From Candidatus Eiseniibacteriota bacterium (lineage in GTDB: Bacteria > Eisenbacteria > RBG-16-71-46 > CAIMUX01 > VGJL01), in assembly GCA_034679345.1 (NCBI GenBank), contig JAXDAY010000010.1:12390-76389 (forward strand): a stretch of 64,000 nt of DNA, in the 5' to 3' direction. Of this stretch, positions 10,774-46,230 are shown piece by piece. The translations under genes were made by a program, and so were the position numbers. Every line of letters starts with the position of its first letter. Within the stretch, counting starts at the first letter, position 1. A model generated the notes under the pieces. It was not told the origin of the DNA and did no database searches. It saw nothing but the letters and a program-made list of their open reading frames with translations.

Positions 10774-10788
10774 GAGTTCGGCTCCCGC

Positions 10789-13627: not shown

Positions 13628-13628
13628 G

Positions 13629-16148: not shown

Positions 16149-17278
16149 TCCGGTTTCCCTCTCCCCCATTCCGAGACGCACCGCTGCAGAAGCTCCTCGG
16201 TGTCATCCGCCATCCGATCCCAGTTGAACCGGCCGGCCCATTCGATCCCCGCCCGCCCCATGGTCTCCCAGAGAGAATCGTCGCTCAACAAGTCCGAGAG
16301 GCGTCCGGCGAGGACCGGAACGTCTCCATGGGGGACCAGGAAGCCCGTCTCGCCGTGGCGGACCGACTCCCGGAGCCCGGGGGCGTCGGAAGCGACCACG
16401 GGGATCCCCATGGCGTTCGCCTCGATGACCGACAGTCCCCAGCCCTCCTTCGGAGAGGTGTAGACCAGCACCCGGGCCTTCTCCAGGATCCGGATCTTCT
16501 CGGCCCCATCCCGGAAGCCGAGCAACTCGACGCGATCCGAGAGCCCCAGGCGGCGGATCTTCTCCTCCAGGTCTCCCCGGTAGTCCCCCTCGCCGGCGAT
16601 CCAATAGCGGGCCCCGGGAACGCGTTCCAGGACCCTCGGGAGGGCCTCGATCGTGAGCTCGATCCCCTTGTACCGCTTGAGCCTCCCCAGGTACAGGATG
16701 ACCGGCTCCGGGGTTCCTTGCCGGGCGGGGGGGCGGTAGGTTTCGTGGTCGATTCCGCAGCGGACCACGGTGATCCGGGAGGGATTGATCCCCCGCCCGA
16801 TCAGGTCCTCCCGCGTCGAATCGGAGAGAACCTGGAAGCGGCTCCCGCCATAGCAGGCCGGGATGAGGCGCTCATGGAGATAGACGTAGAGCGCGATTGG
16901 CAAGCTCGCTTCCCGGAAGACCGTCGTTCCGAAGAGGTGAGGCACGTTGGCGAGGACCGGGATCTCCTTCTGCACCCAGGGCCCGAAGAAGGGGATCTTG
17001 TTCAGATCCTCGACCATGACGTCGAATCCCTGCCCCCGAAGCTTGCGCCACATCGACGGGACGACCCAGTTGAAGCTGTAGGTCGAGCCGGCTCGCACGA
17101 TCTCCATTCCGTCGATCGTCTCGCGGCGCGGGGCGCCCCGCCAGGCCCCGGTGAGGAACGTCACTCGATGGCCGCGCGCGGCCAGACGCCGGTAGATCTC
17201 CCTCAGGATCACCTCGGCTCCGCCCATCTCGGGATGGCGCACGTCACGGTAGCTCACGATGAGGATCGAGAGTGCCAT
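16145..17278 (-). CDS. Glycosyltransferase family 4
   Basis: 377 aa. The N-terminal region MALSILIVSYRDVRHPEMGGAEVILREIYRRLAARGHRVTFLT... and the GWGLSVIEANAMGIPVVASDAPGLRESVRHGETGFLV block form the GT4 (RfaB-like) signature. Confidence 0.85.
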   Translation of the reverse strand: MALSILIVSYRDVRHPEMGGAEVILREIYRRLAARGHRVTFLTGAWRGAPRRETIDGMEIVRAGSTYSFNWVVPSMWRKLRGQGFDVMVEDLNKIPFFGPWVQKEIPVLANVPHLFGTTVFREASLPIALYVYLHERLIPACYGGSRFQVLSDSTREDLIGRGINPSRITVVRCGIDHETYRPPARQGTPEPVILYLGRLKRYKGIELTIEALPRVLERVPGARYWIAGEGDYRGDLEEKIRRLGLSDRVELLGFRDGAEKIRILEKARVLVYTSPKEGWGLSVIEANAMGIPVVASDAPGLRESVRHGETGFLVPHGDVPVLAGRLSDLLSDDSLWETMGRAGIEWAGRFNWDRMADDTEELLQRCVSEWGRGKPE

Positions 17279-24418: not shown

Positions 24419-27400
24419 CTACTCCCTCCAGAGGACCACCTTCAGGTTCGCTTCCTCCGTCCGGGCGCCGTCGGAGGCGGTGACACGGACGATGTAGGCG
24501 CCGTTCGCGAGCTTCGTGCCGTCGCTGGCCGTGCCGCCCCAGTAGATCCCGCCCAACTTCGACGGAGTCATCTGTTCGTGGCTGGCGAGAGTCGTCACGT
24601 AGTTACCCGCGAAGTCGTAGACCTTGATGGTCACATCGCTCGTCTTGCTCAGGGCGAAGTGGATGAGAGCATCGCCGTCGGCAGGATCGAACGGGTTCGG
24701 GTAGGTGTAGACGTCGGTCAGGGTCAACATGGTCGCCTCGACCCGGACCGTCTTCGTCGAACTGCAGGTGTGGCCAAGGCGATCCCTGGCAGTCACAGTG
24801 ATCGTGTAATCGCCGACTGCAAGCGGAGCCGGGATCGTGGCGGTGTAGTGGCCGTTGTTCCACTCCTCGTTCTCCGGAACGATCTCCTCGCCGTCCGGCC
24901 CGCGGATGATGACCACGAGGTCCTCAGCCGACGAACCGACGCCCACGCCCGTGTCCGCCGCGGTGACTTCGATCACCATCGGGGTATTCGGATCATGGAC
25001 GGAGGCCGGGAGAATGATCGCGCACTCCGGAGCGAGCGCATCCACGATGAACCTCTGCTCAACGTACTTGCTGCCGCTGTTGCGCACCTGGTCGAGGACG
25101 CCCTGCTGGTAGATGATCCGCTGCTGGCTCAGGAAGTCGAACCAGCAACCGTCGAGCACGTACAGCGTCTCCCCGCCAACGACGAGGGTGTCGACCACGT
25201 CGCACTGGAGGGCCGGGCCCTCACCCAGGAGGGTGCGGGTCTTCTGGCTGTAAAGCGTGACCTCGAGGATGTCGCCATCCTGGATCCGTCCGCCGCCCAC
25301 GATGGGCAGCTTCACGAGCAGTTCCTCGCTCGGGTCGTAGATGTTCTCAGCGCCGTAGAGAGGCGGCTCGAGGTAGGGCAGCAGCTCATCCGCCGTGCCC
25401 TCGTGCAGCAACTCGCGCTCCTCGAACTCGTCGATGTCGAGTTGCTCGTCCTCTCCGTCGACGCGCCACAGGTCGTAATGGATACCCCAGTCGATCGGGT
25501 TGAAGCATTCGAACCCGCCGACCGGATCCGTGAAGGGCTCGAGGAAGAGCTCGACGTCGTCGATGATCTCGTCGCAGTCGGGATCCTGGATGAACTCCTG
25601 CCGCTCCGGCCTCACGAAGATACCGGAGAGCGGATCGTACATCCGGACCGTCAGCATGGCGTCGTCACCGGCGATGTAACCGTGGACGTTCCGGAGCAGC
25701 GGATTCGAGACCCAGCCACCATGGAACTCCACGATCGGGGCGGTCAGGTCGACCGTGAACGGCATTGTCACCGAAGTCAGATCGTCCGTCCCGTGCGTCC
25801 TGTATTCCACTGTGATCGTGTGATCGCCCTCAGCCAGCCAGTCGCGCTGGATGGGAGAGTGGAAGTAGTCGAGCTCGTAGATGGTCGAGTGGCCATCGTT
25901 GCCGTCGTCGTTCGCGCTCATGAGGTGCGCGCCGCCAGCGCCCCAGACCCAGGTCGCGATGACGTCCTCGGCGAAGTCGCTCACGTCGTAGAACGTGGCG
26001 ACGTCGCGGTCGTCCACCTTGACCTTGACTGTGCTGGCCTCGATGCCCTGTCCGCCGATGTCGTGCAGATAGAAGCTGAAGATCGGATCGGCATCCGTCA
26101 CCCAGTTGCTCAGGTAAGCGGAGTGCGGCGTCACGTTGGCGAGGAACACCGGCGCGCCGCTCTTCGGAGCGAAGACCTCGAAGACCGTACCGTCGCTGTT
26201 GATCGACGAGAGATTGTCCACATTGAAGGAGATCTCGTTCGCCTCGGTGTTGACCCGGATGTTCATGATGCCCTCGGCATCCGAGTAGTCGTAGTCCCAA
26301 CGCCGAACCGTCAGCATCTCCTCCGTGACGCCCTCGTTTTCAGCCAAGGCGGCATTCAGAGCTTCGTCGCTGTACTTGATCACGATCGTCGGAAGGTATC
26401 CTTCCCGGAAGTCGTCATAGTACTCGCTTTGGCTCTTCGTAACCTCGATGTGCCACGCAGTGTCCTTCAGAGGAGTCAGATAGACCCTCTCCTCGGGACT
26501 CAGCTGCGGCGCGATGGTCTCGCTGACGAGCAGGCAGGCGTCGTCCTCCATCCAGGCGCCGCTGACCACGGTCACCTGGCTATAGAGGTCTCCGTAGCCC
26601 TGCGTCACCACCGTGCCATTCGTGCCGAGTTCCGTCGTGACGGGGAACTCGTGAATCGCGGTGGTCACCTCATCGATGAACCACTCGGGATTCTGCATGC
26701 CGGTCACGAAGACCTTGAAGTGCAAGCATTCGTCGATTGGGTACTCATCGTCATAGGTTTCCGTGAGACTGATCCGTCCGCGCCAAACCGTCGGATCATC
26801 GAGGGAGCGGACCAGACCGAACTGGCCGTTCTCGGGATCGGACGGAACTCCGGCGGAGTAGATCCACCAGTAGTCGTTCGGCGCGACGACGTTGTCGCTC
26901 TCTCCGAGGACTACGACACGAGGCCGATCAGTCGAGTTCGGCATGTCGACGGTCAGGATCGCCTGCGGTTCGCTGTTTTCGTCCGCGCTTTCGATCTGAA
27001 CCGACACGTCCTCGACGATCGGCGGCGCCGTGCGAAGGGCCCGGAAGGTCCAGGCGCCGTCATAGGGCCACTCGGTCGGATCGTTGACATCGTCGAGACG
27101 GATGAGCTCCGCCCGCATCATCGGCACCACGTCCGCCGGGTCATCGCCGTAGCGGTTGCCGTCGGAATCCTTCGCGAGAGCGCGCAACCAGAAGAGGGCG
27201 CCTTCCTGGAAGTTGAAGGCCGTCGTCTCGATACGCGTCCGCCACAGGACTTCAGTGGTGTAGTCGTGCTGGCCGGTCACCTGCTCGCCGAATCCGATGT
27301 TCACCCACTCATGATCGAGATCGTTCTCGCCCTCGATCGTGTCGTACTGGAACAGAACATCCTCGATGCTCGGGTCGCTCTCGGCGAGCGCGTAAATGTA

Positions 27401-30400
27401 GAGGTAAGTCAACGGATTCTCGCCGTGCGGATCCTGATCGGGGTCGAACGCCACGACCCGAGCCGTCGGCGGGATGTTGTCGCGAATGATGACATTGACG
27501 TTTCCGCTGGTCGCCGCGTTGCCGCACTCGTCGATCGCGGTGACCCGCAGCAGGTACTCGCCGTCCACCACCAGGCCGGTCGTGTTCCAGAGAACCGAAC
27601 CGGTCACGGCGGAAGGATCATCGAGATCCGCCGGGTCGAAGACGATCGTCCCAAGGTCGCGCCAGATATCGCCATCCGGCTCATCGTCCTTGTTCAGATC
27701 CTCGGCGACCTGGAACTGCATCTGCGTGACGAACGTCTCGTGGCCGAGCGGAGCGTTCGGGATGTTGGCCTCGTCGTCCGAAGCCGTCGCCCAGATCTCC
27801 ACCTCGAGGCCGCGCGTGACTTCCGTCACCTGCCCGAAGTCGATCGGATCCTGAGTCGGATCGTCGACCGCGAGCTTGATGTTGGTGATGTTCACCGGAT
27901 CCGGAGCCGTCGTATCGAGCGTGTTCTTCCAGGAGTAGATCACGTTCGCGTTGCCGGCGACGTCCATGACCCTGACGCGCAGGTCGATCAGCTCGCCCAG
28001 CGCATCGAAGTCGGGATTCGGCTTGCAGCCATCCTCGTCGAACTCCATCGCGTCGAAGTCCATGGTCTTCGACAGGGTGTTCAGAGCGTCGTCGTAGAGG
28101 TAATCCTCCGAGACGCCGCAGGGACGCCACAGAGTCGAATCCTCGTACGACCACTTCCACTCGAACACTGCGTCGAACACGTCGTCGTGCTGGACATCGC
28201 CGTTCTCGTAGGTCTGGCCACGATCGGTGATCTGAGCGATCAGATCGAAGATCCGGTGGCCGTTGCGCTCGTCGATCTCCGCATCGCACCACTTCGAAGT
28301 CGCCTCCGTCGGGTGGAGCAGAGCAAACGGCGGGGCGGTCCAGTCGACGAAGACCAGGATCTTCGCCGCCGCATCGAACGGTTCGGTGTTGCCCGCGTCG
28401 TCGGCGCCGAGAGCCGCGACCTCGTACCAGGTCTGGTCATCGAGGGTCGTCAGATCCCACGGACCGGTGAGCCGCCAGGTGAACCGATCCACCTGCTCGG
28501 TGACCGCATCGATGAGGGTCGGCGTGTCCGCCGTCCCCAGCTTGCGGTAGACGAAGTTCACGTAGCTGAGATCGAGGTGACCCGTCAGCAGCTTCGCGTT
28601 GATGTGTTCGATCGACGAGGCGTGAAGCGCCGTCGGGTTCATGATCTGTTCGGTATCGCCGAAGGTGCGCTGCACCTCGGTGATCGTCATGTGAGGCGGG
28701 ATCGTGTCGATGATCTCGAAGGTGAGGCCGCGGCCTTCGGTCAGGTTCGTCACCTGATCGGTCGCGTTGCCGACCTCGTCCTCGACGAGCGTCGAGAAGT
28801 CGTACTGCTCACCGACCTGAAGCGGGAGCGGCCAATCGACGTCATCGGGGTTCTCGAGACCCACCGAACCAAGATCCAGGTTGAAGCTGTAAGGACGAGT
28901 GTGGTCCGGGTTGATGTCGCCGTCCGTGGCGCTCCAGTCCTCGTCGAACGAGTGGTAGGAGCCCGGGAAGTTGACATCACGCGTCCTCTTGAAGAAGAAC
29001 TCGACCGTGTCGTCCTCGTTCGCAGGATCCGTGGAGGCCAGGAACGTGACCACCTCGTTGCGCTGGATCCGATCGGCATCGGGATCCGCGGTCAACGTGG
29101 CGGTCGGAGCATCCATGTCGACCTTGATGATCGCCGTGGTCGTCTGCCCGACCTCTTCCACGTTACCGGCCTCGTCGGTCGCCTTTGCGGAGAGCTTGTA
29201 CCAGCCGCTCCACTTGAGGCTGCCATCGAGGTTCGTCTCCGTGAGATCCCAGTACAGGTGCCACAGGTAGTAGTAGTTCCCGCCGTTCGGGTACTCGTCC
29301 TTGCCGATGGTCACCGGATCGCCGATCGCCTGGCCCTGCTCGTCCACCGGGGTGGCGAAGAACTCGACGAACTCGATTCCGTCGTCACCGTCCGGTAGCG
29401 GCGGGCCTGGGATCTCCTGATCCCCGCCGTTGAAGTCGTCGCCGAAGCGCGTCCTGGCAACGATCGTGACCAACCGGGCGACCTTCATCTTGTTCATGAG
29501 GTCGTTGTTCCCGAGGAAGCCCTCGTTGACATCGCGCGGCCAGGTGTTCTTCCACATACCGATGACCTCGTCGGACTCGGTCTCGTCGGGGATGTTCGCC
29601 CCGCCGGCCGTGCTCAGGACGAAGTCGGAGTAGTAGTCGTAGTCATCCTCGGTGTCCGAGGGATCGCTGCCATCGCGGTCGACCCAGACGTAGGTGTTCG
29701 CATCCTCGCTGGCATCCTCGGTGTCGAAGGCGAAGACCTTCGCCTCGACGTCGATGATCTTGGTAGCGACCGGCGGGTTCTCGTCGCGCACGACGTAGTC
29801 CGCGGCCTTCCAGTCGAGAGCGTTGCCGGCCGGATCGATGGCCATCACCCACACCTCGATCGGTGTGTCGTGGAAGACCTCGGTCGGCCAGACCCACGAA
29901 GCGTCGAACAGCCACTGGCAGTTCGGCGTGTCCAGGGTGCCCTCGACCGTGTCGTCCGGTCCGAGGCCGCCCTCAGGCGTCGAGGCGATGACGTACTTCG
30001 TCTCGTCGCCGGCCAGCTTGAAGTAGAGCTGAACGTGCCGCACGTCGGTGATGGCGTCCTGGAGAACGACGTGGAAGTCGACGTTCTCACCCGGCGCGAT
30101 CTCCCCGTATGGCTGGTTGTCGCTGAAGTCCCACAGCGTCGGATCGCTGAAATCGACCGCGGCGGTGACGTAGGCCGGATCGGCCTGGTTCGCGTTCGTG
30201 TTACACGCCGCGTCGGTGGCGAGAACGCGCCACTCCAGCACCCCCTCCGGGATGCCCAAGCCGGCCGCGTTGTCGGCGAAGTCCTCGATGTGCGCGATCC
30301 ACTGCTTGTGTCCGGCGACCTCGGGCGGCCCCGGCGCGTAGTGGAACTCGATCGCGACGTCGTTCCAGTCCAGGGTCCCCGGGAGGCGCCACTGGAGCGT

Positions 30401-33400
30401 GAGGACGTCGATCATGTCATCCGCCGGCGTGTAGACGTAGAACTCGACATCGCCCGTATACGGATCCGGAGCGATGACCGGGGACTCGTGGTCCACGACG
30501 CCGTCGTTGAAGTACATCGCGAGATTCACGAACGGACGACCGCCCTCCGGACCGTAGACGACGGCCGGGGCTTCGCGATCGACCTGGATGTTGGAATGGA
30601 CCGAGGTCGTCCGGTTCCCGTCCGCATCCAGCGCCTCAGCCCACAGCTGGTAGAGGCCGTCCTGGTAGCGACCGTCGGGACCGTTGTCGGTGTCCCACTC
30701 CAAGACGAAGAACGCGGTGTTCGCGCCAGGCGTGTAGTCCCCGCGGCAATCCAGCGGGATGTCGCCGAAAGCGATGTCATCGGCGCGACCGAGGATGACC
30801 GCCTCGCCGCCGTCCGGCTGGAGCATGATGTCGACGCCCACCAGGTCCTCGAGCTCGAGGGCGCTGCCGGCCGTGACCATGCCGTAGAGGGTGACCACGC
30901 GGTTCGCGTAGCCCGTCTCGTCGGTCAGACGGTCGCAACCGCAGAGCTCGGTGTTCATCCACATCAGGAATGCGCCGGGCGCCGTCTGATCGTCGACGAT
31001 CACCACCACCTCATCGGCGTGCAGATCGTCCTCGATCGTCGTGTTGCCCGCGACATCCGTGGCAAGCATCCGGAAGCGGAGGTAGGTGTCCTCGCGCGTC
31101 CCGAGCCAGTTCGTGTCGAAGTCGACGTTGAAGGTGACTTGCCCCTCCTCGGTCGGCTCGATCCGGTTCAGGTCCGTGTTGTCGTTCGGAGTCGGATCGA
31201 TCTCGATCCAGTCCGCGTCTTCGAAGCGGTACTCGAAGACGACGTAGTCGATGGCGCTGGCCGGCGACTCAGGCGTCGCATGGTCGTCCGCCGTGCCGGT
31301 GACCTGGATCACATCTCCGAAGAGGAACGTGTCGCCGTCGTGCGGGTTGTTGATCATCGTCGTCGGCGCGTAGCCGTCGTAGATCAACGCCGGCTCGAGC
31401 ATCGCGTAGACCGGGTTACCGGAACCCGGGAAGAGGTCGTCCGTCGGATCGCCGCCGTAGCCGGCGTCGTCGAAGACGACCGCGCGGACGGGCAGGACCG
31501 AGACGATCTCGTCCGGGTCGGCCGGAAGATCGACCTCGCCGTCGCCGTCGTTGTCGTATCCGTCGCTCTCGGGCGGATCGAATCCAGCGCCGCCGAAGTG
31601 AAGAACGCCGGACCAGCCGTCCGCGGGGTCACGATCGATGGCGAAGGTGAGCCACTCGTCCGGGGTGCCGTCGTCGTTCTTGTTCGGGCTGTACTGGAAG
31701 ACCACCGTCCGGGTCGTGATGACGTTGATGTCGGGACCGTCCGTCGATTCGAGGTGGACGGTGATCTCCGACTCGGCGCCGGGCATGACGCCGCCATTGT
31801 CTGCCCAGAAGTTGGAGACGATGGGGGCATCCTTGTCATACATGAACATGATCGGTCCCTGCGGAGCATCGCTGCCATCCGACAGGTTCGTTCCGACCAT
31901 GCCCTTGTTGTCGGTGACCGTCACGAGGACCCGATAGGCGTCGGACTCGAGGACGGAGGTGTCGAACATGTAGTAGTAGAACTCGTCGGGCAGCGCGATC
32001 AGCGATGTCGTTCCCTGACCGCCGCTGCTGTTCCGCCGGTCCGCGTAGTTCCCGTCGTCGTCACCGATCTTGTCGATGAAGAACCGGTACTCGTAGACCG
32101 TTCCCGGCATGAATCCGTCGTAGATCACCTGGTAGTAGTCCGGGTGCCCGACATTGCTCATCGGCAACGACGTGTAGTCGACGGCGCCTTCCTCACGGAT
32201 CCAGAGGGCGACGTTCTCGATCTCGTCGCTCCGGACCTCGTAGTAGTCGGCGACGTACATCGTCAGAGCCATCGAGAGAGCCTTGTCGCCGGAGTAGAAG
32301 TCATTGACGACATCCAGCAGGACCGTCGAGAACGGATCGCTCTCGAAGGCCTGGTAGAAGTCGAGCTTGACCTCGGTGATCTCGGCCGTGGCGTCGGTCG
32401 TCGAGGCGGTCACGAAGACGTCGTTCTCGACGCCGCTTCCCTTGTGCTCGGGCGTGCCGGCGGGAGCGAGACCGAACGGGTTGCCCGGCCAACCGAGCTC
32501 CGGCGCTGCCGGAGGCTCCTGCTGCGGGTAACCCCACTCGTCGCCCTGCTCGTAATCGAGACCGTAGAGATGAACGATCGGGCGGGCGACCTCGCGAAGG
32601 ATCACATGATTCCCCTCGCTGATGATCGGCTCCACGAGATCGCACACGCTCGTATCCTCGTACCAGCCCGAGCCGTCGAGGTCCATCAGACCGACGGCGA
32701 CCAGGTCATAGGCGTTCGCGCCGCTCCAATCGAGCGTTCCCATGTCTCCGTCCGGGTTTTCCGGATCGGGGACGCCGCCCTCGGGACCTTCCGCCCACTC
32801 GACCGTGAAGGGCTCGACGTCATCGCCGGCCGCGATCAGCAACCAGCCGTCGCTGTAGGCGCCGGGGTACTGAATCGCGTCCGGAGGAACGCCGGTGCCC
32901 ATGAAGTTGTAGCTGACCGTGATTTCCGCATCCGCATCCGGGGCGACCGCGAAGGTGATGAACGTGTCGCCCGCCGAGGCGGTGTAGTCGACTCCGCTGA
33001 CGAGCTCCACGCCGCCGATGCAGACCACGACGCCCGCTCCCCTCTGATCGAGGATCGGCTTCTCGAGGGCCAGCATCAGGTTCGCGTCCACATCCGAGCC
33101 CGCGTAAGAGGTGTTCTGGATGCGCGGCGCGAAGTAGAACCGCACCTGAGCGACATTGTCGAAGTCGGGATCAACCTCGCCCACGATCGTCCTGCCGTCG
33201 CCGATGTTCAGGACCGTCTCGCTCGGCAGACAGAGGTCGTCGGGCTTCACGGGATCGATCACGTAGGCGAGATCCTCGCCCGCCCACTGGTTGAAACCGA
33301 ACCCGTACGGGTAGACGGGGATCCAGGAGTAGTTGCCGATGCCGTCGATCGCCTCGGCGAAGAACTGGTAGTTCCCGTCTGTGAGATCCAACCCCTGCTC

Positions 33401-36400
33401 GTGGACCGTCCACCGGAAGTTGTACGGGTAGTCCCGATCCGGATAGGAGTCCCAAGGGGTGTCGTCCGGGAAGGTGTCCATCTGAGCCGCGGAGAGCAGC
33501 TTCCAGCCCGGCCGATCCGTCGTGCAGGCGGGATTCGGGCGGTACCACAGCCGCACCCACTCGATCTCATCGGAGTCTTCCGCCGTCACGTGGACGAGGA
33601 AGGTGCGCGAGGTGGCCGGATTCTCATCGGGTCCGAGGACCTGATAAGGATCGCCGTCGGAGACGGGGTGGAACACGTCCACAACCTCGTCGTCCTCGGT
33701 CTCGACGCGCACCGGGCCCGTCATGATCGGCGGGGTCCAGTCGCGGAAGAGGATCGACTCGAAGTCGGTGCCGGTCAGATCCGACTCGGGGCACTCGCGC
33801 GAACTCTCGACCGTCGCTGTGAGATCGCAGAGCTGGCTGCCCGCGACCGCGTAACCGGCGAGGTCGTAGTACGCGAAGTACGGCTCGACGGAGTCTGCCT
33901 GGTTGACCGAGTCCTGGTCGTCGACCGTCTGGCCGTCGTTGTCCCAGTCGCCGACGACCCAGTCGATGCCGTCCCAGTAGACGTCCTCGCGAACGAGTGG
34001 AACGAGGAGCTGCCCTTCCGGAGTGTCGACGAACGGCGCGTTGCGCCCGGCGTCCAGCACCTCGTCGATGCCCGGATCGTAGAGCCAGTTCTCGTTGACG
34101 TCGCGGATCCGCTCGTCATCGAGATACGGCGCGTAGCTCCTCTGATTGAGGAACTCGCTGCGCGTATCGCGGACGGGGTCGTCCCGATACTGGAAGCCGG
34201 GCAGACCGTTCAGATCGGCGTAGGAGTCGCCGTCCGGGTTCGGCCCGATGACCTCATTGGGCTCGCCCGTGAACGTGGCCGTGAAGACGATGTTCTCGAT
34301 CTCTTCGCCCGCCGGGACGGCCCGCACGCGGAAGAACCGCGCGTTCTTCGGCATCTCATCGATATCCGGCGGCGTGGTGTCCAGGTCGAGCGTGACGATG
34401 TCGTAGCTCCAAGTGTCGTTGGAGGGATCGCCGTCGCCCTGGTCGTCATAGAGCGGCACGAAGGCCTCGACGACCGTCAGGTCGACATCGACCTCGGAGC
34501 AGTTGACGGTGACGATCTGAAGCTCGAGCGGGTTCCAGTTGTCCGGGTCGTACTGATGCTCCTGGATCTGGTCTTCCTCGCCGGAGCGGGTGATGGCGAT
34601 CGTGCGGACGATGTAGTCGCCATCGCTCTGCGTCTCGTCGCCGCACGGATCCCAGTCGATCTTCCACAGATTCAGCCCGATGAGGGCCGGATCGAGGTCG
34701 TCGCCGTAATCCGTGTAGTTCTCGCGGTTCTCGCGGAAGATATAGTCGGACGGGTCAAGATTCTCCCAGTCGTTGGGAGTCCCGTCGCAATCGTCCGCCT
34801 GCTCGGCCCAGTAGTAGGCCGGGTTGGCGTTCGAATCGTCGTCGTAGGTCGTGAACCGGGTGAGCGGAACGCCGTCGGGGATGTTCTCGCTGTAGGTGTC
34901 CGACCCGATGACGACGATGTCGATTCCCTCGTCATAGACGTCGTTCTCGTTCACGTCCTCGATGACCGCGTCCCTCGAGGAGTAGACCGGGAAGCCGACG
35001 ATGTAGTCGTTGTCGGCGTTGTAGTAGGAGTACCAGCGGTCGTCCGGCCCATACGAGAAGAACCGGCTGGCGCCGCCATAGGCCGCCTCGAGGAAAGCGA
35101 GGTCGTCGCGGCAGCCGTTGTCGGAGTTGAACCGGTAGATGAGCTGGTCGCCGCGCTCGCCGATCGCGTCAGGATCGGATCCGCCGACGGTGCCGATCGT
35201 CTCCCAGACCTCTCCGGCATCGAGATCGTTGCCGTTGACGACGATCTCCTTCAACCGCTCGAACCGGACCCGGTCCGGGTCGAGGCCGTTGCAGCCATGG
35301 ATGTAGTGGAGGCCGTAGAGCTTCAGCTGCCCCTCGAGAGCGGGAGGAGAGGAGCAGTAGACCGGCTCGATATAGACGCGGCAGGGGAAGAAGTCCTGTC
35401 CGGGGTAGAGCCACTCCCACGCGGTCTCCTCCGGGTTGATCGTCTCGATGCGGCCGACGTTCCCTTGCCAGTCCGCGGCCGCCAGCAGGAACGCCAGCTC
35501 GCTCGGCGAGGTGATCTCGTCACCTTCCACCGTCTGCCAGATCGTCCCGTTGGGCGGGGGCGGAACATTCCCGTACGGGGGAAGCCCGTCTCCCACATAG
35601 ATGCTCAGCCCGATCCGATGCGGAGAGTTCACTCCGTCGATCTGACGGGGCCTCATGTTCCCGAGCGCGATGGCCCTGTCCAGATAGGTGGCCATCTTCG
35701 TCTTGTCCCAGCTACCCTCGTTTCCGCGAAGCACGGGGTAGAGGAAGTACTGGTCGCCGTCGTCGATCCCCGACTCGTAGAACCGGAGATAGGCGGTGTA
35801 GGTCTGGTTGGGCTCATCGAAGGTCCAACCATCCTCGCCGGAGACCCAGTCGTTGGTCAGCGTGACCAGGCGAGGGCGGCTCTCCTCCATCACCGGGGTC
35901 CAGAATAGGTTGGCGTCATAGTAGGAGTTGCCGTCGACGTCCTGCAGGTCCGTGCCCCCCTCCACCGGCTCGGCGAACCGGATCCGGCAGCCCTGCTCGT
36001 ACGGATCGGCGCTCTCGCTGAAGTCCCGGATGATGATGACCGGGAAGTTGTCGCCGTCCGGCGGCTGATAGTCCACCACCTCGTTACCGCCGAAGGCGAA
36101 TCCCTGGAGATCGAAGTTCTGGGTGATGTCCAGGGTCCCGTCGTCGATCTGGGCCGCCTGAGCGGGAAGGATCGGCAGCGACAGGTAGATGTAGAGCGCA
36201 TCGTTGGAGAGATCATCGTTGTCGGGGTCGCTGGGATCCTTGTTCTCGTCGTACGAGGACCGCACGATGCCGCCGCCGACATGGATGCTGATCGTATCGT
36301 CGGGGACCGCCAGTTGACCTTGGTAATCCTCGAAGAACTGCGCGGATCCTGGAATCGTCACCCCGACGTCGTCGATGTTGACGTCGTTGATGCTGAAGTT

Positions 36401-37468
36401 CCGCACACGGACGATGTTCGACCAGAACGTCGAGTACCAGTTCTCGGTCACGCCGCCGAGGATCGCTCCCGCCGGATTCGACGTGAACCAGTTGTCGAAC
36501 GGACCGCCTGCGTTCTTCGTGGTGACCATCTGGTCGAACACGCCGACCAGCACGTCGAGGTTCGCGTGGTAGTACATGGCGTGGAACAGCGGCCCGCCGC
36601 CATCGTTGGTCGTCTCGACGTAGGTTTCCACGTTCTGGAGCTTCGGGCTCCTCGGATCGTCCTCCCAGACCAAGTAGCCGTCGTCGAGGTGCAGATTCAT
36701 GACGCCCGGCTGCATGTAGAGGAAGTCGTTCCCCGAGCTGCGGCTCAGATCGAGGACGTTCGTATTGATGCCAGCGCCCGTGAGGGTGGCTTCGTTGAAC
36801 TCGATGGTCCCGCCGAAGGCGCCGTTCCAGTTGACGCCGGTCGCCCACACCACGTCGGCGTCGAAGGTGACGAGGACATGGTTGTCGTTGGGGCCGTCGT
36901 CGACCGAGAGATCGTTCGCGATGCCGGTGATCTCGACCCGCGTGATCACGGGGCCGTCGCCGACGATGAGAGTCGAGACGTCGATGCTGTCATAGCCGGT
37001 GAGGTCTCTGACCTCTCCCGCCTTGAGCGCGATCTCCTCGATCGCACCGTCCTCGAACTGGGCGTCGACGAGCCCGTTGGGGAAGGTGAGATAGAGAACG
37101 TTGTCCCCGTCGTTGCTGCCGTAACCCATCTCGGTGAGGTCCATGGTCTCCGAGACGAAGTCGTCGTCGGGAGTCCCGGTGTCCTCTCCGATCATCGCCG
37201 GATCGATGGCCTCGTTGAAGACCAGCACGACCCGCGGCCCGGTTGGGTTAAACGTCGTGGCAACTAGATACGGCGCACCGCTCACCGGGGTCTCTTGCGG
37301 TGGCAAGAGGCTTGTCCCAAAGCTGGTGGGATACGCCGGGTAGTTGATGACCGTGTTCTCCGCCGGCGCAAGGTCACGGGTGTCGGCGTATGCCCCGTAG
37401 ACCGCACCGAGCAAGGTGAGCGCTAGGATAACCATGAAGACAGTGCTCCTGGTCCTGAATCCGCTCAT
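24419..37468 (-). CDS. Giant (~4349 aa) acidic secreted cell-surface protein: signal peptide, >15 Ig-like/cadherin-like modules, C-terminal T9SS-type / FlgD-Ig-like sorting domain
   Basis: ORF-track frame 24419..37744, uninterrupted. True start MSGFRTRSTVFMVILALTLLGAVYGAYA at 37468, preceded by AAGGAGGAAGAGGGTG. Recurrent module-start motifs DxxAPxx / DxxPPxx every ~200-300 aa (DKDAPIVSNF, DQTAPGAFLMW, DREAPAVVYGP, DMDAPTATLTADP, DTIPPHMTITEV, DWTAPPFALLHP, DTTAPDPVNITNI, DNIPPTARVVAF, DLTAPIVEFHGG). Extreme D/E excess with few K/R. The C-terminal block is YTYPNPFDPADGDALIHFALSKTSDVTIKVYDFAGNYVTTL...GIYWGGTASDGTKLANGAYIVRVTASDG. Confidence 0.85.
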   Translation of the reverse strand: MSGFRTRSTVFMVILALTLLGAVYGAYADTRDLAPAENTVINYPAYPTSFGTSLLPPQETPVSGAPYLVATTFNPTGPRVVLVFNEAIDPAMIGEDTGTPDDDFVSETMDLTEMGYGSNDGDNVLYLTFPNGLVDAQFEDGAIEEIALKAGEVRDLTGYDSIDVSTLIVGDGPVITRVEITGIANDLSVDDGPNDNHVLVTFDADVVWATGVNWNGAFGGTIEFNEATLTGAGINTNVLDLSRSSGNDFLYMQPGVMNLHLDDGYLVWEDDPRSPKLQNVETYVETTNDGGGPLFHAMYYHANLDVLVGVFDQMVTTKNAGGPFDNWFTSNPAGAILGGVTENWYSTFWSNIVRVRNFSINDVNIDDVGVTIPGSAQFFEDYQGQLAVPDDTISIHVGGGIVRSSYDENKDPSDPDNDDLSNDALYIYLSLPILPAQAAQIDDGTLDITQNFDLQGFAFGGNEVVDYQPPDGDNFPVIIIRDFSESADPYEQGCRIRFAEPVEGGTDLQDVDGNSYYDANLFWTPVMEESRPRLVTLTNDWVSGEDGWTFDEPNQTYTAYLRFYESGIDDGDQYFLYPVLRGNEGSWDKTKMATYLDRAIALGNMRPRQIDGVNSPHRIGLSIYVGDGLPPYGNVPPPPNGTIWQTVEGDEITSPSELAFLLAAADWQGNVGRIETINPEETAWEWLYPGQDFFPCRVYIEPVYCSSPPALEGQLKLYGLHYIHGCNGLDPDRVRFERLKEIVVNGNDLDAGEVWETIGTVGGSDPDAIGERGDQLIYRFNSDNGCRDDLAFLEAAYGGASRFFSYGPDDRWYSYYNADNDYIVGFPVYSSRDAVIEDVNENDVYDEGIDIVVIGSDTYSENIPDGVPLTRFTTYDDDSNANPAYYWAEQADDCDGTPNDWENLDPSDYIFRENRENYTDYGDDLDPALIGLNLWKIDWDPCGDETQSDGDYIVRTIAITRSGEEDQIQEHQYDPDNWNPLELQIVTVNCSEVDVDLTVVEAFVPLYDDQGDGDPSNDTWSYDIVTLDLDTTPPDIDEMPKNARFFRVRAVPAGEEIENIVFTATFTGEPNEVIGPNPDGDSYADLNGLPGFQYRDDPVRDTRSEFLNQRSYAPYLDDERIRDVNENWLYDPGIDEVLDAGRNAPFVDTPEGQLLVPLVREDVYWDGIDWVVGDWDNDGQTVDDQDSVNQADSVEPYFAYYDLAGYAVAGSQLCDLTATVESSRECPESDLTGTDFESILFRDWTPPIMTGPVRVETEDDEVVDVFHPVSDGDPYQVLGPDENPATSRTFLVHVTAEDSDEIEWVRLWYRPNPACTTDRPGWKLLSAAQMDTFPDDTPWDSYPDRDYPYNFRWTVHEQGLDLTDGNYQFFAEAIDGIGNYSWIPVYPYGFGFNQWAGEDLAYVIDPVKPDDLCLPSETVLNIGDGRTIVGEVDPDFDNVAQVRFYFAPRIQNTSYAGSDVDANLMLALEKPILDQRGAGVVVCIGGVELVSGVDYTASAGDTFITFAVAPDADAEITVSYNFMGTGVPPDAIQYPGAYSDGWLLIAAGDDVEPFTVEWAEGPEGGVPDPENPDGDMGTLDWSGANAYDLVAVGLMDLDGSGWYEDTSVCDLVEPIISEGNHVILREVARPIVHLYGLDYEQGDEWGYPQQEPPAAPELGWPGNPFGLAPAGTPEHKGSGVENDVFVTASTTDATAEITEVKLDFYQAFESDPFSTVLLDVVNDFYSGDKALSMALTMYVADYYEVRSDEIENVALWIREEGAVDYTSLPMSNVGHPDYYQVIYDGFMPGTVYEYRFFIDKIGDDDGNYADRRNSSGGQGTTSLIALPDEFYYYMFDTSVLESDAYRVLVTVTDNKGMVGTNLSDGSDAPQGPIMFMYDKDAPIVSNFWADNGGVMPGAESEITVHLESTDGPDINVITTRTVVFQYSPNKNDDGTPDEWLTFAIDRDPADGWSGVLHFGGAGFDPPESDGYDNDGDGEVDLPADPDEIVSVLPVRAVVFDDAGYGGDPTDDLFPGSGNPVYAMLEPALIYDGYAPTTMINNPHDGDTFLFGDVIQVTGTADDHATPESPASAIDYVVFEYRFEDADWIEIDPTPNDNTDLNRIEPTEEGQVTFNVDFDTNWLGTREDTYLRFRMLATDVAGNTTIEDDLHADEVVVIVDDQTAPGAFLMWMNTELCGCDRLTDETGYANRVVTLYGMVTAGSALELEDLVGVDIMLQPDGGEAVILGRADDIAFGDIPLDCRGDYTPGANTAFFVLEWDTDNGPDGRYQDGLYQLWAEALDADGNRTTSVHSNIQVDREAPAVVYGPEGGRPFVNLAMYFNDGVVDHESPVIAPDPYTGDVEFYVYTPADDMIDVLTLQWRLPGTLDWNDVAIEFHYAPGPPEVAGHKQWIAHIEDFADNAAGLGIPEGVLEWRVLATDAACNTNANQADPAYVTAAVDFSDPTLWDFSDNQPYGEIAPGENVDFHVVLQDAITDVRHVQLYFKLAGDETKYVIASTPEGGLGPDDTVEGTLDTPNCQWLFDASWVWPTEVFHDTPIEVWVMAIDPAGNALDWKAADYVVRDENPPVATKIIDVEAKVFAFDTEDASEDANTYVWVDRDGSDPSDTEDDYDYYSDFVLSTAGGANIPDETESDEVIGMWKNTWPRDVNEGFLGNNDLMNKMKVARLVTIVARTRFGDDFNGGDQEIPGPPLPDGDDGIEFVEFFATPVDEQGQAIGDPVTIGKDEYPNGGNYYYLWHLYWDLTETNLDGSLKWSGWYKLSAKATDEAGNVEEVGQTTTAIIKVDMDAPTATLTADPDADRIQRNEVVTFLASTDPANEDDTVEFFFKRTRDVNFPGSYHSFDEDWSATDGDINPDHTRPYSFNLDLGSVGLENPDDVDWPLPLQVGEQYDFSTLVEDEVGNATDQVTNLTEGRGLTFEIIDTIPPHMTITEVQRTFGDTEQIMNPTALHASSIEHINAKLLTGHLDLSYVNFVYRKLGTADTPTLIDAVTEQVDRFTWRLTGPWDLTTLDDQTWYEVAALGADDAGNTEPFDAAAKILVFVDWTAPPFALLHPTEATSKWCDAEIDERNGHRIFDLIAQITDRGQTYENGDVQHDDVFDAVFEWKWSYEDSTLWRPCGVSEDYLYDDALNTLSKTMDFDAMEFDEDGCKPNPDFDALGELIDLRVRVMDVAGNANVIYSWKNTLDTTAPDPVNITNIKLAVDDPTQDPIDFGQVTEVTRGLEVEIWATASDDEANIPNAPLGHETFVTQMQFQVAEDLNKDDEPDGDIWRDLGTIVFDPADLDDPSAVTGSVLWNTTGLVVDGEYLLRVTAIDECGNAATSGNVNVIIRDNIPPTARVVAFDPDQDPHGENPLTYLYIYALAESDPSIEDVLFQYDTIEGENDLDHEWVNIGFGEQVTGQHDYTTEVLWRTRIETTAFNFQEGALFWLRALAKDSDGNRYGDDPADVVPMMRAELIRLDDVNDPTEWPYDGAWTFRALRTAPPIVEDVSVQIESADENSEPQAILTVDMPNSTDRPRVVVLGESDNVVAPNDYWWIYSAGVPSDPENGQFGLVRSLDDPTVWRGRISLTETYDDEYPIDECLHFKVFVTGMQNPEWFIDEVTTAIHEFPVTTELGTNGTVVTQGYGDLYSQVTVVSGAWMEDDACLLVSETIAPQLSPEERVYLTPLKDTAWHIEVTKSQSEYYDDFREGYLPTIVIKYSDEALNAALAENEGVTEEMLTVRRWDYDYSDAEGIMNIRVNTEANEISFNVDNLSSINSDGTVFEVFAPKSGAPVFLANVTPHSAYLSNWVTDADPIFSFYLHDIGGQGIEASTVKVKVDDRDVATFYDVSDFAEDVIATWVWGAGGAHLMSANDDGNDGHSTIYELDYFHSPIQRDWLAEGDHTITVEYRTHGTDDLTSVTMPFTVDLTAPIVEFHGGWVSNPLLRNVHGYIAGDDAMLTVRMYDPLSGIFVRPERQEFIQDPDCDEIIDDVELFLEPFTDPVGGFECFNPIDWGIHYDLWRVDGEDEQLDIDEFEERELLHEGTADELLPYLEPPLYGAENIYDPSEELLVKLPIVGGGRIQDGDILEVTLYSQKTRTLLGEGPALQCDVVDTLVVGGETLYVLDGCWFDFLSQQRIIYQQGVLDQVRNSGSKYVEQRFIVDALAPECAIILPASVHDPNTPMVIEVTAADTGVGVGSSAEDLVVIIRGPDGEEIVPENEEWNNGHYTATIPAPLAVGDYTITVTARDRLGHTCSSTKTVRVEATMLTLTDVYTYPNPFDPADGDALIHFALSKTSDVTIKVYDFAGNYVTTLASHEQMTPSKLGGIYWGGTASDGTKLANGAYIVRVTASDGARTEEANLKVVLWRE

Positions 37469-38040: not shown

Positions 38041-38082
38041 ATGAAAACCGGCCCGCCCCAAGGATCGCGTCCGGGGCGGGCC
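38041..38082 (-). terminator. Rho-independent terminator-like hairpin (10-bp stem GGCCCGCCCC/GGGGCGGGCC, 13-nt loop) followed on minus strand by GGTTTTCAT, ~25 nt after the CARDB-protein stop
   Basis: Seen directly at 38050-38082 plus a U4 tract at 38041-38049. It implies the giant gene has its own promoter in 37469-38040. Confidence 0.5.
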
Positions 38083-38106: not shown

Positions 38107-40983
38107 CTAGCGGACCAATACGATCTTGCGAACGAACGTCTCCGCTCCCAAGGCGATCCTGACGTAATAAACTCCAGCGGGAGCCTGCGCCCCGAGATTC
38201 GTCTCCCCGGTCCAGGCCCACTCTCCGCCGCCCGCTCCGATCTCGCCATTCCCGATGATTTGAACTTCCTTGCCCTGAACATCGAAGACCGCGACGCGAA
38301 CCTGAGTGGCGAATCCCGGGACGATCCGGATCGGACTGCCGGGCAGATACGGGTTGCGGAAGAGGATGCGTCCACCCTCGAGCCGAGGGTCGAGACTCGC
38401 CAGCGAGATGCCATCGCCGGCTAGGTCGCCGCGCGCCAGATCCTTGTCGTACAGGCTGCCCCCGACCCGGTCGATCCGCGAACCCGCCAACCGGTCGGAG
38501 TCGAGAATCCGGAAGACGCAACGTCCGACCCGACCTCCGGTCCACTGGATCTCTTCCGAGAGATCGAACCTCGGGATGAAGGCGACGCGCGCCGTCCCTC
38601 CCGATTCGCCCTCGCGCGCCGCGAGGAAGTCGTGGGGCGCGCTCTCTCCCGGGGTCTGCTGGAGGGACTGGAAGTCGAGCACGGTCCCGTCGAAGGCGAG
38701 TTCCCACTCCCCGCCGATCAGCGTGTCATCCGCCTCGAGGTCCATCTCGACGAGCAGGCTGTCGCCGCCCTGGCTGAGGCTGGCCACAAGATGAAGCGAT
38801 CCCATCGGATCCGAAGCGTTCTCCACGCGGGCGACTCGCGCCCCCTCCCCCACGAGGCCGCAGGGAGGATAGCTGACGCAGGTGAGACCGTCTGCCGTGG
38901 GATCCGGACCACAGGCGCCGAACGGGGCAGCCGGAGGCGGACCATTGGCGAACTGATAGTTCAGGCTGCCGAGAACGTCGGCGAGGTCGAGCGCGCCGGA
39001 ATCGTTGAAGTCGGCCGCGTCCATGCAGGCCGGAGCCTCGCCGCCGCCGTACTGGTAGTGCAGGATCAGCAAGGCATCCGTGATGTCAATCGCCCCGTTG
39101 GCGTCGGCATCGCCCCGAATGAACCCGCTGCCGTGGATCAAGACGCTGCCGTCGACCACCTCGGGAACGACCGAGGTCGCATCGCAGAGGGTCATGCGGT
39201 TGAGCGTCCTTTGATCCTCGACGAGACGGATCTCCGTCGGGCCGCCCGGAGCGTTTGGCAGGACGTTGAAGACGAGATCGATGAACGTGTCATCGCCCGG
39301 CGGGATCGCATCGGGACAGAGGAAGGAGAAGAGCACGCCGACACGTCCGCTACCTGCAGCGCCCGAGTGCTGTACATGTTCGGCTCCCTCGCAACGGGTG
39401 CCCGTTGTGGAGACCCCCTGGTAGCCGAGGACAAGCGGGTCGTACTCGAACCGGAATCCCAGTCCGAGGATCGGCTCGCTGTTGCTGCCGCGAATCGGAA
39501 TTCTGACCGCCGTGTCGCCCGGATCGAAGCTCAGGCCCGACGCGACTTCGAAGGAGAAGCCGACGATTGAGCAAGTGAAGCTCCCCGGGAGGCAATTGTT
39601 CGTCTCATCAGACTCGATGACGACCGAGCCGGCATCCGCGCACGCCTCGAGCGTATGGTCCCCCGCCGCGTACCCCTCGAGCGTGCACCAGCTGGTCCAG
39701 GCCTCGCCGTTGACCGCGAGCGCCGGGACCTGCAGGTTGCAGAGGGGATCCCCGTCGAGCGATATCTGGCAGAGCGACGCCGAAGAGGCGGCCTGCCCGA
39801 TGTTCCGCACCAGAGCGCGGGCGCCGCCTGGGCAGTCGGGCGAGTCCAGCTCGAGCTGCGAGACGATCAGATCGGGCCGGAGGCAGGAGATGAACTCGGT
39901 TCGGAGATTGTTCTCCTCGTCGATCTCCTGGATCAGATTCGTCGCGTCCGCCCGCGCGGTGACGGAACGGTTCCCGGGCCCGTAGCTTCCGAGATCGCAA
40001 TAGTCCGTCCAGACCGCCTGTCCCGGCTGCAGGGCGGGCACGGTCTTGTCGCACAGGGCGTTGCCGTCCAGCGAGATGCGGCAGATGGTGGACGGCGCGT
40101 CCGCCTCGCCGACATTCCGGACGTAGGCCCTCGCCTCGGTGGCGCAGTTCGCGCTCGGGAGGAAGTCGATGTCCTGCACCTCGAGATCGGCGGTGGCGCC
40201 GACGGTCTTGCGGATGCGGACTTCGTCAACGAAGGCTCCGTTGGGAATCACCGGCACGGTGGTGTTCGAGTTCGAGAAGAAGGCGAAAGCGACCCAGACC
40301 TCGGATCTCCCGACGACGGCTTGGAGGTCGAAGCGCTCGTTGCGGTGCCATTGGTCTCCGAAGTCGCCGGATCGGAACTCGCCGGCAAAGGACTGCCCAT
40401 CGGTGCTCGATGCGACGAATAGACGGTCGAGGTTCCCCGATTGGCAACGCACCCACCAATCGTAGAGGACCTCCGCGCCCGTCGCGTCGGAGAGATCGAA
40501 GGGGCCGGCGATCATGAAGGCGGAGGAGCCGTTGGGATAGCTCTCATCGCATGGCTCGTAGCCGTCGCCGCCAAAGTTTCGGTACCCGTTCGCGCACCAC
40601 GCGGCGGAACTTCCGACCGAGGACCTGCATCCCTGGACGTCATCCCAGGTCCATCCAAGCCCGCCCCACCGGAGCGTCCAAGGCCCACAGTCGCCGCCCT
40701 GCGGGAATCCGTCCTCGAACCCCTCCGTGCAGAGGGTGATGACCGACATGACCTCGGAAACGGATTCCTCCGACGCGGGCCGGACGCCTCCAGGGGCGAG
40801 ATCCGAACCGTCATCCACCACCGTCCACTCGTCCTCGTGGCCGATCGTGACCCGGACTCCGCGCAGGATCTGCGGCTCGCCCAGCGTCCCGGCATCCTCC
40901 GCGGATGCAGGGAGCTGACCGAGCCAGCAGGCCGAGAGAACGACGAACAGCGAGCCGACCCACAGGCGACCCCGATGCTTCAT
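38107..40983 (-). CDS. Secreted multidomain surface protein: two CARDB domains, cohesin-like module(s), type-I dockerin, C-terminal T9SS-type / FlgD-Ig-like sorting domain
   Basis: ORF-track frame 38107..41235. True start MKHRGRLWVGSLFVVLSACWLGQLPASA at 40983 with RBS GGGAGGG. The CARDB unit is duplicated (VRNVGEADAPSTICRISLDGNALCDKTVPALQPGQAVWTDYC / VRNIGQAASSASLCQISLDGDPLCNLQVPALAVNGEAWTSWC). Cohesin-like SFDPGDTAVRIPIRGSNSEPILGLGFRFEYDPLVL. Dockerin GDADANGAIDITDALLIL...ADFNDSGALDLADVLGSLNYQF (two DxNxDGxxxxxD loops). C-terminus ILFRNPYLPGSPIRIV...VAVFDVQGKEV...AGVYYVRIALGAETFVRKIVLVR. Confidence 0.8.
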   Translation of the reverse strand: MKHRGRLWVGSLFVVLSACWLGQLPASAEDAGTLGEPQILRGVRVTIGHEDEWTVVDDGSDLAPGGVRPASEESVSEVMSVITLCTEGFEDGFPQGGDCGPWTLRWGGLGWTWDDVQGCRSSVGSSAAWCANGYRNFGGDGYEPCDESYPNGSSAFMIAGPFDLSDATGAEVLYDWWVRCQSGNLDRLFVASSTDGQSFAGEFRSGDFGDQWHRNERFDLQAVVGRSEVWVAFAFFSNSNTTVPVIPNGAFVDEVRIRKTVGATADLEVQDIDFLPSANCATEARAYVRNVGEADAPSTICRISLDGNALCDKTVPALQPGQAVWTDYCDLGSYGPGNRSVTARADATNLIQEIDEENNLRTEFISCLRPDLIVSQLELDSPDCPGGARALVRNIGQAASSASLCQISLDGDPLCNLQVPALAVNGEAWTSWCTLEGYAAGDHTLEACADAGSVVIESDETNNCLPGSFTCSIVGFSFEVASGLSFDPGDTAVRIPIRGSNSEPILGLGFRFEYDPLVLGYQGVSTTGTRCEGAEHVQHSGAAGSGRVGVLFSFLCPDAIPPGDDTFIDLVFNVLPNAPGGPTEIRLVEDQRTLNRMTLCDATSVVPEVVDGSVLIHGSGFIRGDADANGAIDITDALLILHYQYGGGEAPACMDAADFNDSGALDLADVLGSLNYQFANGPPPAAPFGACGPDPTADGLTCVSYPPCGLVGEGARVARVENASDPMGSLHLVASLSQGGDSLLVEMDLEADDTLIGGEWELAFDGTVLDFQSLQQTPGESAPHDFLAAREGESGGTARVAFIPRFDLSEEIQWTGGRVGRCVFRILDSDRLAGSRIDRVGGSLYDKDLARGDLAGDGISLASLDPRLEGGRILFRNPYLPGSPIRIVPGFATQVRVAVFDVQGKEVQIIGNGEIGAGGGEWAWTGETNLGAQAPAGVYYVRIALGAETFVRKIVLVR

Positions 40984-41317
40984 TAGACTACCCTCCCTAG
41001 GATCCGCAGAGGTCGCACGCTGTCTCTCGCCAGCCGGACTCGTTCCTGTCTTGATCAGCCTCAGAGTTCGGGATCGATCGGATCGAGGCAGCCGAGGACT
41101 CATTGAGATGGAGACTCGACGCGAGAGCCATGCACGACGGCTTCCATGACCTGGTGCCCCCGGGATACGGGCAACCCGCTGGTGCCCGCTCTCGGGTACC
41201 ATTGAGCCGCCCGCGCGGTCTCGACGGGCACGCACCCCGGGGAGTGTCGCGCGCCTGGATTGGATGCGTCAACCCGAATCCAATCTGCGCTGAGGCTCTG
41301 AGGCTTGTGCGAAGAGC

Positions 41318-41390
41318 TTGAGCCGCCCGGGACTCGAACCCGGCACGTCCTGCTTAAAAGGCAGGTGCTCTACCGGCTGAGCTAGCGGCT
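41318..41390 (-). tRNA. tRNA-Lys (anticodon UUU)
   Basis: Minus-strand sequence GAGCCGCTAGCTCAGCCGGTAGAGCACCTGCCTTTTAAGCAGGACGTGCCGGGTTCGAGTCCCGGGCGGCTCA folds as a cloverleaf. Acceptor GAGCCGC/GCGGCTC, anticodon loop CTTTTAA. CCA is not encoded. Confidence 0.85.
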
Positions 41391-41443
41391 CTCGGCGAGC
41401 CTAACCTGCCGCGGCGCTTCGCGCAACGCCCGAGACCCGCGCA

Positions 41444-46147: not shown

Positions 46148-46230
46148 TGCGAGAGGGGGGACTCGAACCCCCACGAGATAATCTCATCGGATCCTAAGTC
46201 CGACGCGTCTGCCAGTTCCGCCACTCTCGC
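46148..46230 (-). tRNA. tRNA-Leu (anticodon UAG), long variable arm
   Basis: Minus-strand sequence GCGAGAGTGGCGGAACTGGCAGACGCGTCGGACTTAGGATCCGATGAGATTATCTCGTGGGGGTTCGAGTCCCCCCTCTCGCA. Anticodon stem TCGGA/TCCGA, loop CTTAGGA. Confidence 0.85.

Follow-up and report, generated by a model that had tools for sequence, protein, structure and literature searches.

A conserved dockerin-cohesin C-terminal cassette in a predicted modular surface protein of an uncultured Candidatus Eiseniibacteriota bacterium

Results

Gene and domain organisation

We analysed a stretch of 64,000 nucleotides from the genome of a Candidatus Eiseniibacteriota bacterium (contig JAXDAY010000010.1, positions 12,390 to 76,389; hereafter the window), which carries on its minus strand a gene (38107..40983, stop codon included) for a secreted modular protein of 958 amino acids (aa), here termed the query protein. 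According to the list of open reading frames (ORFs) and their translations, the gene is a single ORF of 958 codons plus stop, and the reading frame continues open upstream to a GTG at 41235. Translation likely starts at the ATG at 40983, which is favoured over the GTG because direct reading of the sequence reveals a Shine-Dalgarno-like GGAGG (minus strand, 40992..40996) at a spacing of 8 nucleotides 5' of the ATG. An identical 958-aa protein, called from the same ATG, is present in public assemblies (P0001). All features of the gene described below lie on the minus strand.

Pfam was run on the full-length protein as well as on seven of its segments, and NCBIfam was scanned in addition. The parts follow each other in the order signal peptide, N-terminal domain, two CARDB domains, cohesin-like module 1, dockerin, cohesin-like module 2 and a C-terminal domain (CTD) that resembles FlgD-Ig domains and the sorting domains of the type IX secretion system (T9SS). 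A preliminary description of this DNA had placed a cohesin and a dockerin on the same polypeptide. This is borne out, with two cohesin-like modules flanking the dockerin; the domain list given there was incomplete, as the signal peptide, the N-terminal domain, cohesin-like module 2 and the CTD had been overlooked. The signal peptide (aa 1-28, 40900..40983; MKHRGRLWVGSLFVVLSACWLGQLPASA followed by ED) has a basic n-region, a hydrophobic core and an A-S-A motif, and was judged from these sequence features only, without a predictor. The protein has a pI of 4.27 and contains 27 cysteines; together with the signal peptide, these values fit an extracellular protein.

Dockerin

The dockerin spans aa 618-708 (38860..39132) and was recognised by its motifs and by PDB matches. 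It contains the two repeats of a type I dockerin, that is, two tandem segments of ~22 residues, each made of a 12-residue calcium-binding loop (D or N at positions 1, 3, 5, 9 and 12) and a helix. The loops DADANGAIDITD and DFNDSGALDLAD are canonical calcium-loop motifs (D-x-[DN]-x-[DNS]-G), each followed by a helix predicted in the AlphaFold model, and the repeats are completed by a cysteine-containing tail (C653, C691, C702, C708). The predicted local distance difference test (pLDDT) score was mostly 89-97, and 78-86 in the tail. A phmmer search of PDB with the segment returned dockerins in 16 of 18 matches (best E 2.3e-5). Against a hidden Markov model (HMM) of 25 homologous dockerin modules it scored 125.8 bits, a value inflated by the presence of the query among the 25, and four relatives (P0006, P0012, P0013, P0035) carry precomputed PF00404 matches. 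The query dockerin itself did not reach the PF00404 gathering score of 22.9 bits: the segment alone scored 21.7 bits and the full protein 17.6. Hence the earlier view of this domain as robust was over-confident on Pfam grounds, but the calcium loops and the PDB dockerin matches, together with the model, support the assignment. The dockerin is separated from cohesin-like module 2 by a linker of ~19 aa (38803..38859), delimited by pLDDT and alignment, which is poorly conserved: pLDDT falls below 50 at model residues 233-241 and the columns of the family alignment are weakly conserved.

Cohesin-like modules

Cohesin-like module 1 (aa 473-617, 39133..39567), identified with PF00963 and a family profile, directly abuts the dockerin, practically without a linker. 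Its PF00963 score of 23.4 bits (E 7.5e-5) lies just under the gathering score of 24.1, but a profile of five homologous segments retrieved cohesins from PDB as 17 of its 20 top matches (best E 8.7e-4); the module was modelled with pLDDT 60-83, and below 50 for aa 590-616. Module 2 (aa 728-868, 38380..38802) was recognised by homologue profiles and the model. In the query protein it had no Pfam match (segment aa 709-872); PF00963 matched 9 of 27 segments homologous to it (best E 1.5e-6), cohesins were the top PDB matches of its family profile and its pLDDT was about 90. BLASTP found no match between the two modules, and their relation is visible only by profiles (hhalign of the two families, 95.7% probability, E 9e-9). 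When full-length relatives were scanned, 14 of 40 matched PF00963 (best E 5.1e-11).

An AlphaFold model of aa 479-958, based on an alignment of 30 sequences, reached pLDDT 81.9 and a predicted TM-score (pTM) of 0.61; a single-sequence model of aa 479-870 was unusable (pLDDT 38). Among the top 50 Foldseek matches of the former in PDB almost all were type I or type II cohesins (TM-score normalised to the target 0.55-0.74, E to 8e-9), at 10-18% identity to the solved cohesins. The Foldseek output is silent on which of the modules aligned, and module 2 is the one that was confidently modelled. AlphaFold and Foldseek agree on the beta-sandwich (jelly-roll) fold of cohesins. Thus homologue profiles, PDB searches and the model support both segments as cohesin-like modules. 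As the cohesins of this family mostly escape Pfam thresholds, the observation is also relevant to genome annotation.

C-terminal domain

The CTD (aa 874-958, 38110..38364) is a FlgD-Ig-like or T9SS type A-like sorting domain with 38.1 bits against PF13860 (cut-off 27). It also scored 20.5 against TIGR04183 (cut-off 23) and 16.9 against PF18962 (cut-off 27), and CHU_C matched weakly. The domain sits at the extreme C-terminus, as expected for a T9SS type A sorting domain, and was modelled with pLDDT 87-97. Among the cassette relatives scanned, FlgD_ig was found in 38 of 40 and Por_Secre_tail (PF18962) in 10 of 40 at E <1e-3.

A conserved C-terminal cassette

A word-indexed protein search yielded no close full-length relative; aa 682-870 then served as query for an exhaustive search by HMMER, which matched 50 representative proteins. 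In 44 of these, aa 613-958 (dockerin, cohesin and CTD) aligned nearly end to end with the C-terminal region of the protein. The N-terminal domains attached to it include fn3, CARDB, beta-helix/NosD, Kelch, RCC1, He_PIG and DUF11, and furthermore Peptidase_C25, Trypsin_2 and the N-terminal domain of purple acid phosphatase. These alignments indicate that the ~345 residues form a conserved, reusable C-terminal cassette on many otherwise unrelated proteins. The cassette had gone unnoticed in the preliminary description; it is our main result and more notable than the single protein. In the literature searched, no dockerin-cohesin-CTD cassette is described, which is weak evidence since subscription journals were thinly covered.

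According to local HMMs, an upstream cohesin is also present in 11 of the 44 cassette proteins, or about a quarter, with the query excluded (P0036, P0038, P0042, P0044, P0045, P0051, P0052, P0061, P0074, P0081 and P0083), and in all 11 it sits against the dockerin practically without a linker. The chain of other relatives terminates in a cohesin-dockerin unit (for example the reprolysin-like peptidase P0009) or, in proteins from other metagenomes, in a lone dockerin; by their architecture, these are candidate 'cargo'. P0036 is a full-length orthologue (39% identity over 961 aa). Its locus (L083) has the same order as the window, with purA, the orthologue and then a FlgD_ig protein of 4602 aa, so that the pair of query gene and giant gene beside purA is kept.

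We also searched the GTDB representative genomes, which do not include the source genome of the window, with a pattern within the dockerin, a choice through which dockerin-only loci of Planctomycetota dominate the output. The full cassette was found in two metagenome-assembled genomes (MAGs) labelled 'uncultured bacterium', and a dockerin-cohesin version in one Zixibacteria MAG. In a full-cassette 'uncultured bacterium' MAG, each cassette gene is adjoined by a second cohesin-bearing ORF (L003, 2..4072 and 3760..7032; L005, 3066..5372 and 5391..6167), and cohesin genes thus cluster there. The cysteine-rich dockerin subtype alone is abundant in MAGs of Planctomycetota, where a locus often holds several such genes and the dockerin is at times joined to a cohesin (cohesin-dockerin). 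Such loci (L022, L024, L031, L061, L040, L052) have dockerins with the tail C...CGxDPTxDxLxC, their genes are clustered 2-5 per ~12 kb, and several encode the linker-less cohesin-dockerin unit; L061 contains tandem proteins with a dockerin-dockerin-cohesin-dockerin arrangement. These sequences suggest a widespread, largely unannotated cohesin-dockerin system in Planctomycetota.

N-terminal domain and CARDB pair

The N-terminal passenger domain (aa 83-262, 40198..40737), delimited by homologous segments, comprises ~180 aa with six cysteines and is rich in cysteine and tryptophan. It had no credible match in Pfam, NCBIfam, a phmmer search of PDB or a PDB profile search, and a homologue search with the domain alone returned nothing. 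Homologous segments occur in P0003 (together with Peptidase_C1), in the FlgD_ig-tailed P0004 and in the orthologue P0036, and the domain is a candidate new family of extracellular domains; P0003 is itself a papain-like peptidase protein. Any likeness of the domain to MAM or 'choice-of-anchor' jelly-rolls is tentative.

Two CARDB domains follow, at aa 265-368 (39880..40191; PF07705, 48.9 bits) and aa 370-472 (39568..39876; 47.2 bits). Both lie well above the gathering score of 22.7, in agreement with the preliminary description, which had further taken them for ~95% similar in architecture and for products of a recent internal duplication. Neither of these points held. The two domains are 41% identical, the two 42-aa strings that had been compared have 20 of 42 residues in common, no repeat between the units was found at the DNA level, and P0036 also has two CARDB units at the same positions. 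A recent duplication is ruled out by the identity and the missing DNA repeat; together with the presence of both units in a 39%-identical orthologue, the sequences indicate that the duplication is old.

Genomic neighbourhood

Upstream on the same strand lie the genes for trigger factor, clpX, purA and tRNA-Lys. ARAGORN and Rfam placed tRNA-Lys(ttt) between purA and the query gene (41319..41391, minus strand) and a tRNA-Leu(tag) at the upstream end of the trigger-factor ORF (46148..46230, minus strand). RNA folding revealed a GC-rich hairpin followed by UUUU 25 nucleotides past the stop codon (38044..38082, minus strand; -39.1 kcal/mol, z = -2.75 against shuffles), which from its sequence is likely an intrinsic terminator. 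A terminator consensus scan did not pick it up, for which we blame the long loop. Given the upstream tRNA-Lys and the 3' hairpin, the gene looks like its own transcription unit.

Directly downstream is a giant gene (24419..37468, minus strand) for 4349 aa, in which only Big_13 and a C-terminal FlgD_ig/T9SS-like domain were recognised. The giant protein has a pI of 4.05, 813 aspartate and glutamate residues and a signal peptide, and more than 4000 of its residues belong to no recognisable family. Opposite to it, on the plus strand, run two antisense ORFs of 1606 and 2012 aa (24578..29398 and 29870..35908), which are most likely high-GC 'shadow' ORFs and not genes; both are long enough to mislead gene callers. 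Directly past the giant gene follows one for an OmpA-family protein of 542 aa with calcium-binding repeats of thrombospondin type 3 (TSP3; 22698..24326, minus strand), which may be an envelope partner of the query and giant surface proteins, and then riboflavin genes. Further away, an ORF of 854 aa with Reg_prop (two-component regulator propeller) repeats (5742..8303, minus strand) is set among glycosyltransferase and sugar-epimerase genes (7943..17278), a region that looks like surface-polysaccharide biosynthesis.

Discussion

The domain identities, the order of the parts, the conservation of the cassette and the orthologue with conserved synteny were computed here. With moderate confidence, we read the query protein as an adaptor, anchored to the cell surface, within a cohesin-dockerin network that is not cellulosomal. 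An uncultured bacterium of high GC content would export it by the Sec route as an acidic, cysteine-rich and modular surface protein, and the CTD would direct its passage through the outer membrane and its attachment there. The cohesin nearest the membrane would then take the calcium-dependent dockerin of another protein, and the protein's own dockerin would plug into the cohesin of a neighbour. The passenger domains would thus be displayed and cross-linked in a surface network. We infer this export route, the anchoring, the specificity of cohesin-dockerin pairing and the binding in trans as opposed to cis. Dockerin, cohesin and CTD are co-retained in fixed order in 44 clusters with unrelated passengers, which argues for a joint function in assembly or anchoring. 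The dockerin-only relatives argue for binding in trans, and with two cohesins per dockerin at least one receptor should be left free. Self-polymerisation or bridging, as put forward in the preliminary description, is a reasonable inference from the architecture, with binding in cis, inside one chain, just as possible.

Several observations weigh against the anchored adaptor. No cohesin or dockerin was found in the giant neighbour or in any other ORF of the window, neither cohesin-like module of the query protein attains the PF00963 gathering score, and module 1 was modelled with moderate confidence only. The ~19-aa linker could let the dockerin bind cohesin 2 of the same chain, and cohesin 1, fused to the dockerin without a linker, is more like an X-module stabiliser than a free receptor. 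With regard to export, the CTD does not reach the cut-offs for T9SS type A tails (TIGR04183, PF18962), and none of the T9SS machinery (SprA/PorV/PorU/GldKLMN) was found among the 21 ORFs of the window scanned against Pfam.

The main rival is an intramolecular clasp, in which cohesin 2 of the same chain receives the dockerin, or cohesin 1 packs against it. Cohesin-dockerin-cohesin would then be a rigid, calcium-stabilised stalk that holds the passengers off the membrane with no intermolecular assembly. X-module-dockerin units are a feature of type II dockerins, and the linker-less fusion of cohesin 1 and dockerin, seen in many proteins of the family and in Planctomycetota loci, resembles them. 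Across the family, the linker between dockerin and cohesin 2 is short and weakly conserved, and its length is fairly constant; the 1:1 ratio of dockerin to cohesin in the basic cassette suits self-pairing, and an intramolecular dockerin clasp has been described (PMC3821032). The pTM of the model is fairly high for a four-domain chain and hints at predicted packing between domains, but this packing is putative. Moreover, the dockerin-only relatives need a partner cohesin in trans, and in the query protein, with two cohesins per dockerin, at least one stays free. We regard the clasp as unlikely.

Slightly less credit is given to the possibility that the modules are generic Ig-like spacers with a calcium-binding stabilising element and without specific pairing, so that the protein would simply act, through its N-terminal domain and CARDB units, as an adhesin or binding protein anchored by the CTD. 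The Pfam scores of cohesin and dockerin below threshold and the low identity to solved cohesins would fit such a role. So would the combination of CARDB and FlgD_ig, which is typical of adhesin-like surface proteins, and the conserved neighbour, which is giant, adhesin-like and free of cohesin and dockerin. Against it stand the canonical calcium loops, the dockerin-only proteins in the same family, and a dockerin and a cohesin kept together in strict order across 44 clusters with unrelated N-terminal domains, which argues for a joint function. A true cellulosome-like scaffoldin organising polysaccharide-degrading enzymes appears very improbable, although cohesin and dockerin share one chain in adaptor scaffoldins (PMC4959524) and cellulosome-like systems have been proposed for Cloacimonadota (PMC8542988). 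Neither a carbohydrate-binding module (CBM) nor a glycoside hydrolase was found in the query protein, in its giant neighbour or in those further ORFs of the window that were scanned. The cassette relatives matched 41 Pfam families, and the 25 commonest of these included none either, being mostly proteases, repeats, Ig-like domains and the phosphatase N-terminal domain. For want of CBMs and carbohydrate-active enzymes (CAZymes) in the context scanned, a strict cellulosome was hence rejected.

Few known protein-protein connectors are as tight as cohesin-dockerin pairs, of which synthetic biology makes wide use; to our knowledge, nearly all mechanistic understanding of them comes from the cellulosomes of Firmicutes. 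If the anchored adaptor is correct, diderm bacteria would reuse this connector for general surface display, and the family would yield cohesin-dockerin pairs that are new and probably orthogonal, as well as a natural tag that serves as both anchor and connector. A bolder and doubtful extension, which we put forward as speculation, is that in an uncultured lineage the cassette serves generally as a module for surface display that assembles itself, with proteins exported and anchored by their CTDs and daisy-chained dockerin to cohesin. Dozens of passengers (proteases, phosphatases, adhesin-like repeats) would then be arranged head to tail in a lattice or in fibrils at the outer membrane, and the proteins with an extra upstream cohesin, the query included, would be branch points. 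Cellulosome-type assembly would in that case have been turned into a modular, scaffold-free cell-surface coat.

Comparison with known systems

In comparison with the T9SS type A cargo (Por_Secre_tail, TIGR04183), the CTD is likewise a beta-sandwich of 80-90 aa at the extreme C-terminus, with weak TIGR04183, PF18962 and CHU_C matches that become stronger in family members. It differs in that it remains under the curated cut-offs, with FlgD_ig as its best match, and in that the T9SS machinery was not seen in the window ORFs scanned.

The preliminary description had called combinations of cohesin and dockerin outside cellulolytic Firmicutes poorly understood. This is fair, but the combination has precedents in the planctosome and in Cloacimonadota, and a survey of non-cellulosomal cohesin and dockerin proteins has reportedly been made by Peer et al. 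in 2009 (cited in PMC8542988). The query protein can thus be seen as a non-cellulosomal use of cellulosome assembly parts that is not unprecedented. With the clostridial and ruminococcal scaffoldins (CipA, ScaA/ScaB) it shares one or more cohesins and a dockerin on one secreted chain with a cell-surface anchoring element (predicted here) at one end, the cohesin fold and the duplicated calcium-binding dockerin repeat; cohesin and dockerin on one chain are standard in adaptor scaffoldins (PMC4959524). In contrast to them, it lacks a CBM or CAZyme context, its putative anchor is a FlgD-Ig/T9SS-like CTD and not an SLH domain or a sortase signal, its host belongs to an uncultured lineage of the diderm type, its dockerin has a cysteine-containing tail and its cohesins are only distantly related to the solved ones (10-18% identity).

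The planctosome is closer in kind. For Nemodlikiaceae (Planctomycetes), an adaptor composed of signal peptide, dockerin and cohesin was proposed as the link between an anchor protein and peptidases that carry dockerins (PMC6461901). The query protein carries the same three elements on one chain and is likewise non-cellulosomal. Moreover, its cysteine-rich dockerin subtype is abundant in Planctomycetota MAGs, and its relatives include P0009, a reprolysin-like peptidase with cohesin-dockerin. Unlike in the planctosome adaptor, which is itself hypothetical, the dockerin is sandwiched by two cohesins and the passengers are the CARDB units and the N-terminal domain; as the CTD follows cohesin 2, adaptor and anchor would be united on one chain. 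In Ca. Stygibacter (Cloacimonadota), a scaffoldin of 3,755 aa with tandem cohesins and CBMs has been proposed, anchored by its CTD, with the dockerins on separate enzymes (PMC8542988). There too a non-Firmicute cohesin protein has a conserved CTD for attachment to the surface of its own cell, and the enzymes carry C-terminal dockerins, as do the dockerin-ended relatives of the query protein. What sets the query protein apart is the compact dockerin-cohesin-CTD cassette, which would unite both functions on each protein that carries it.

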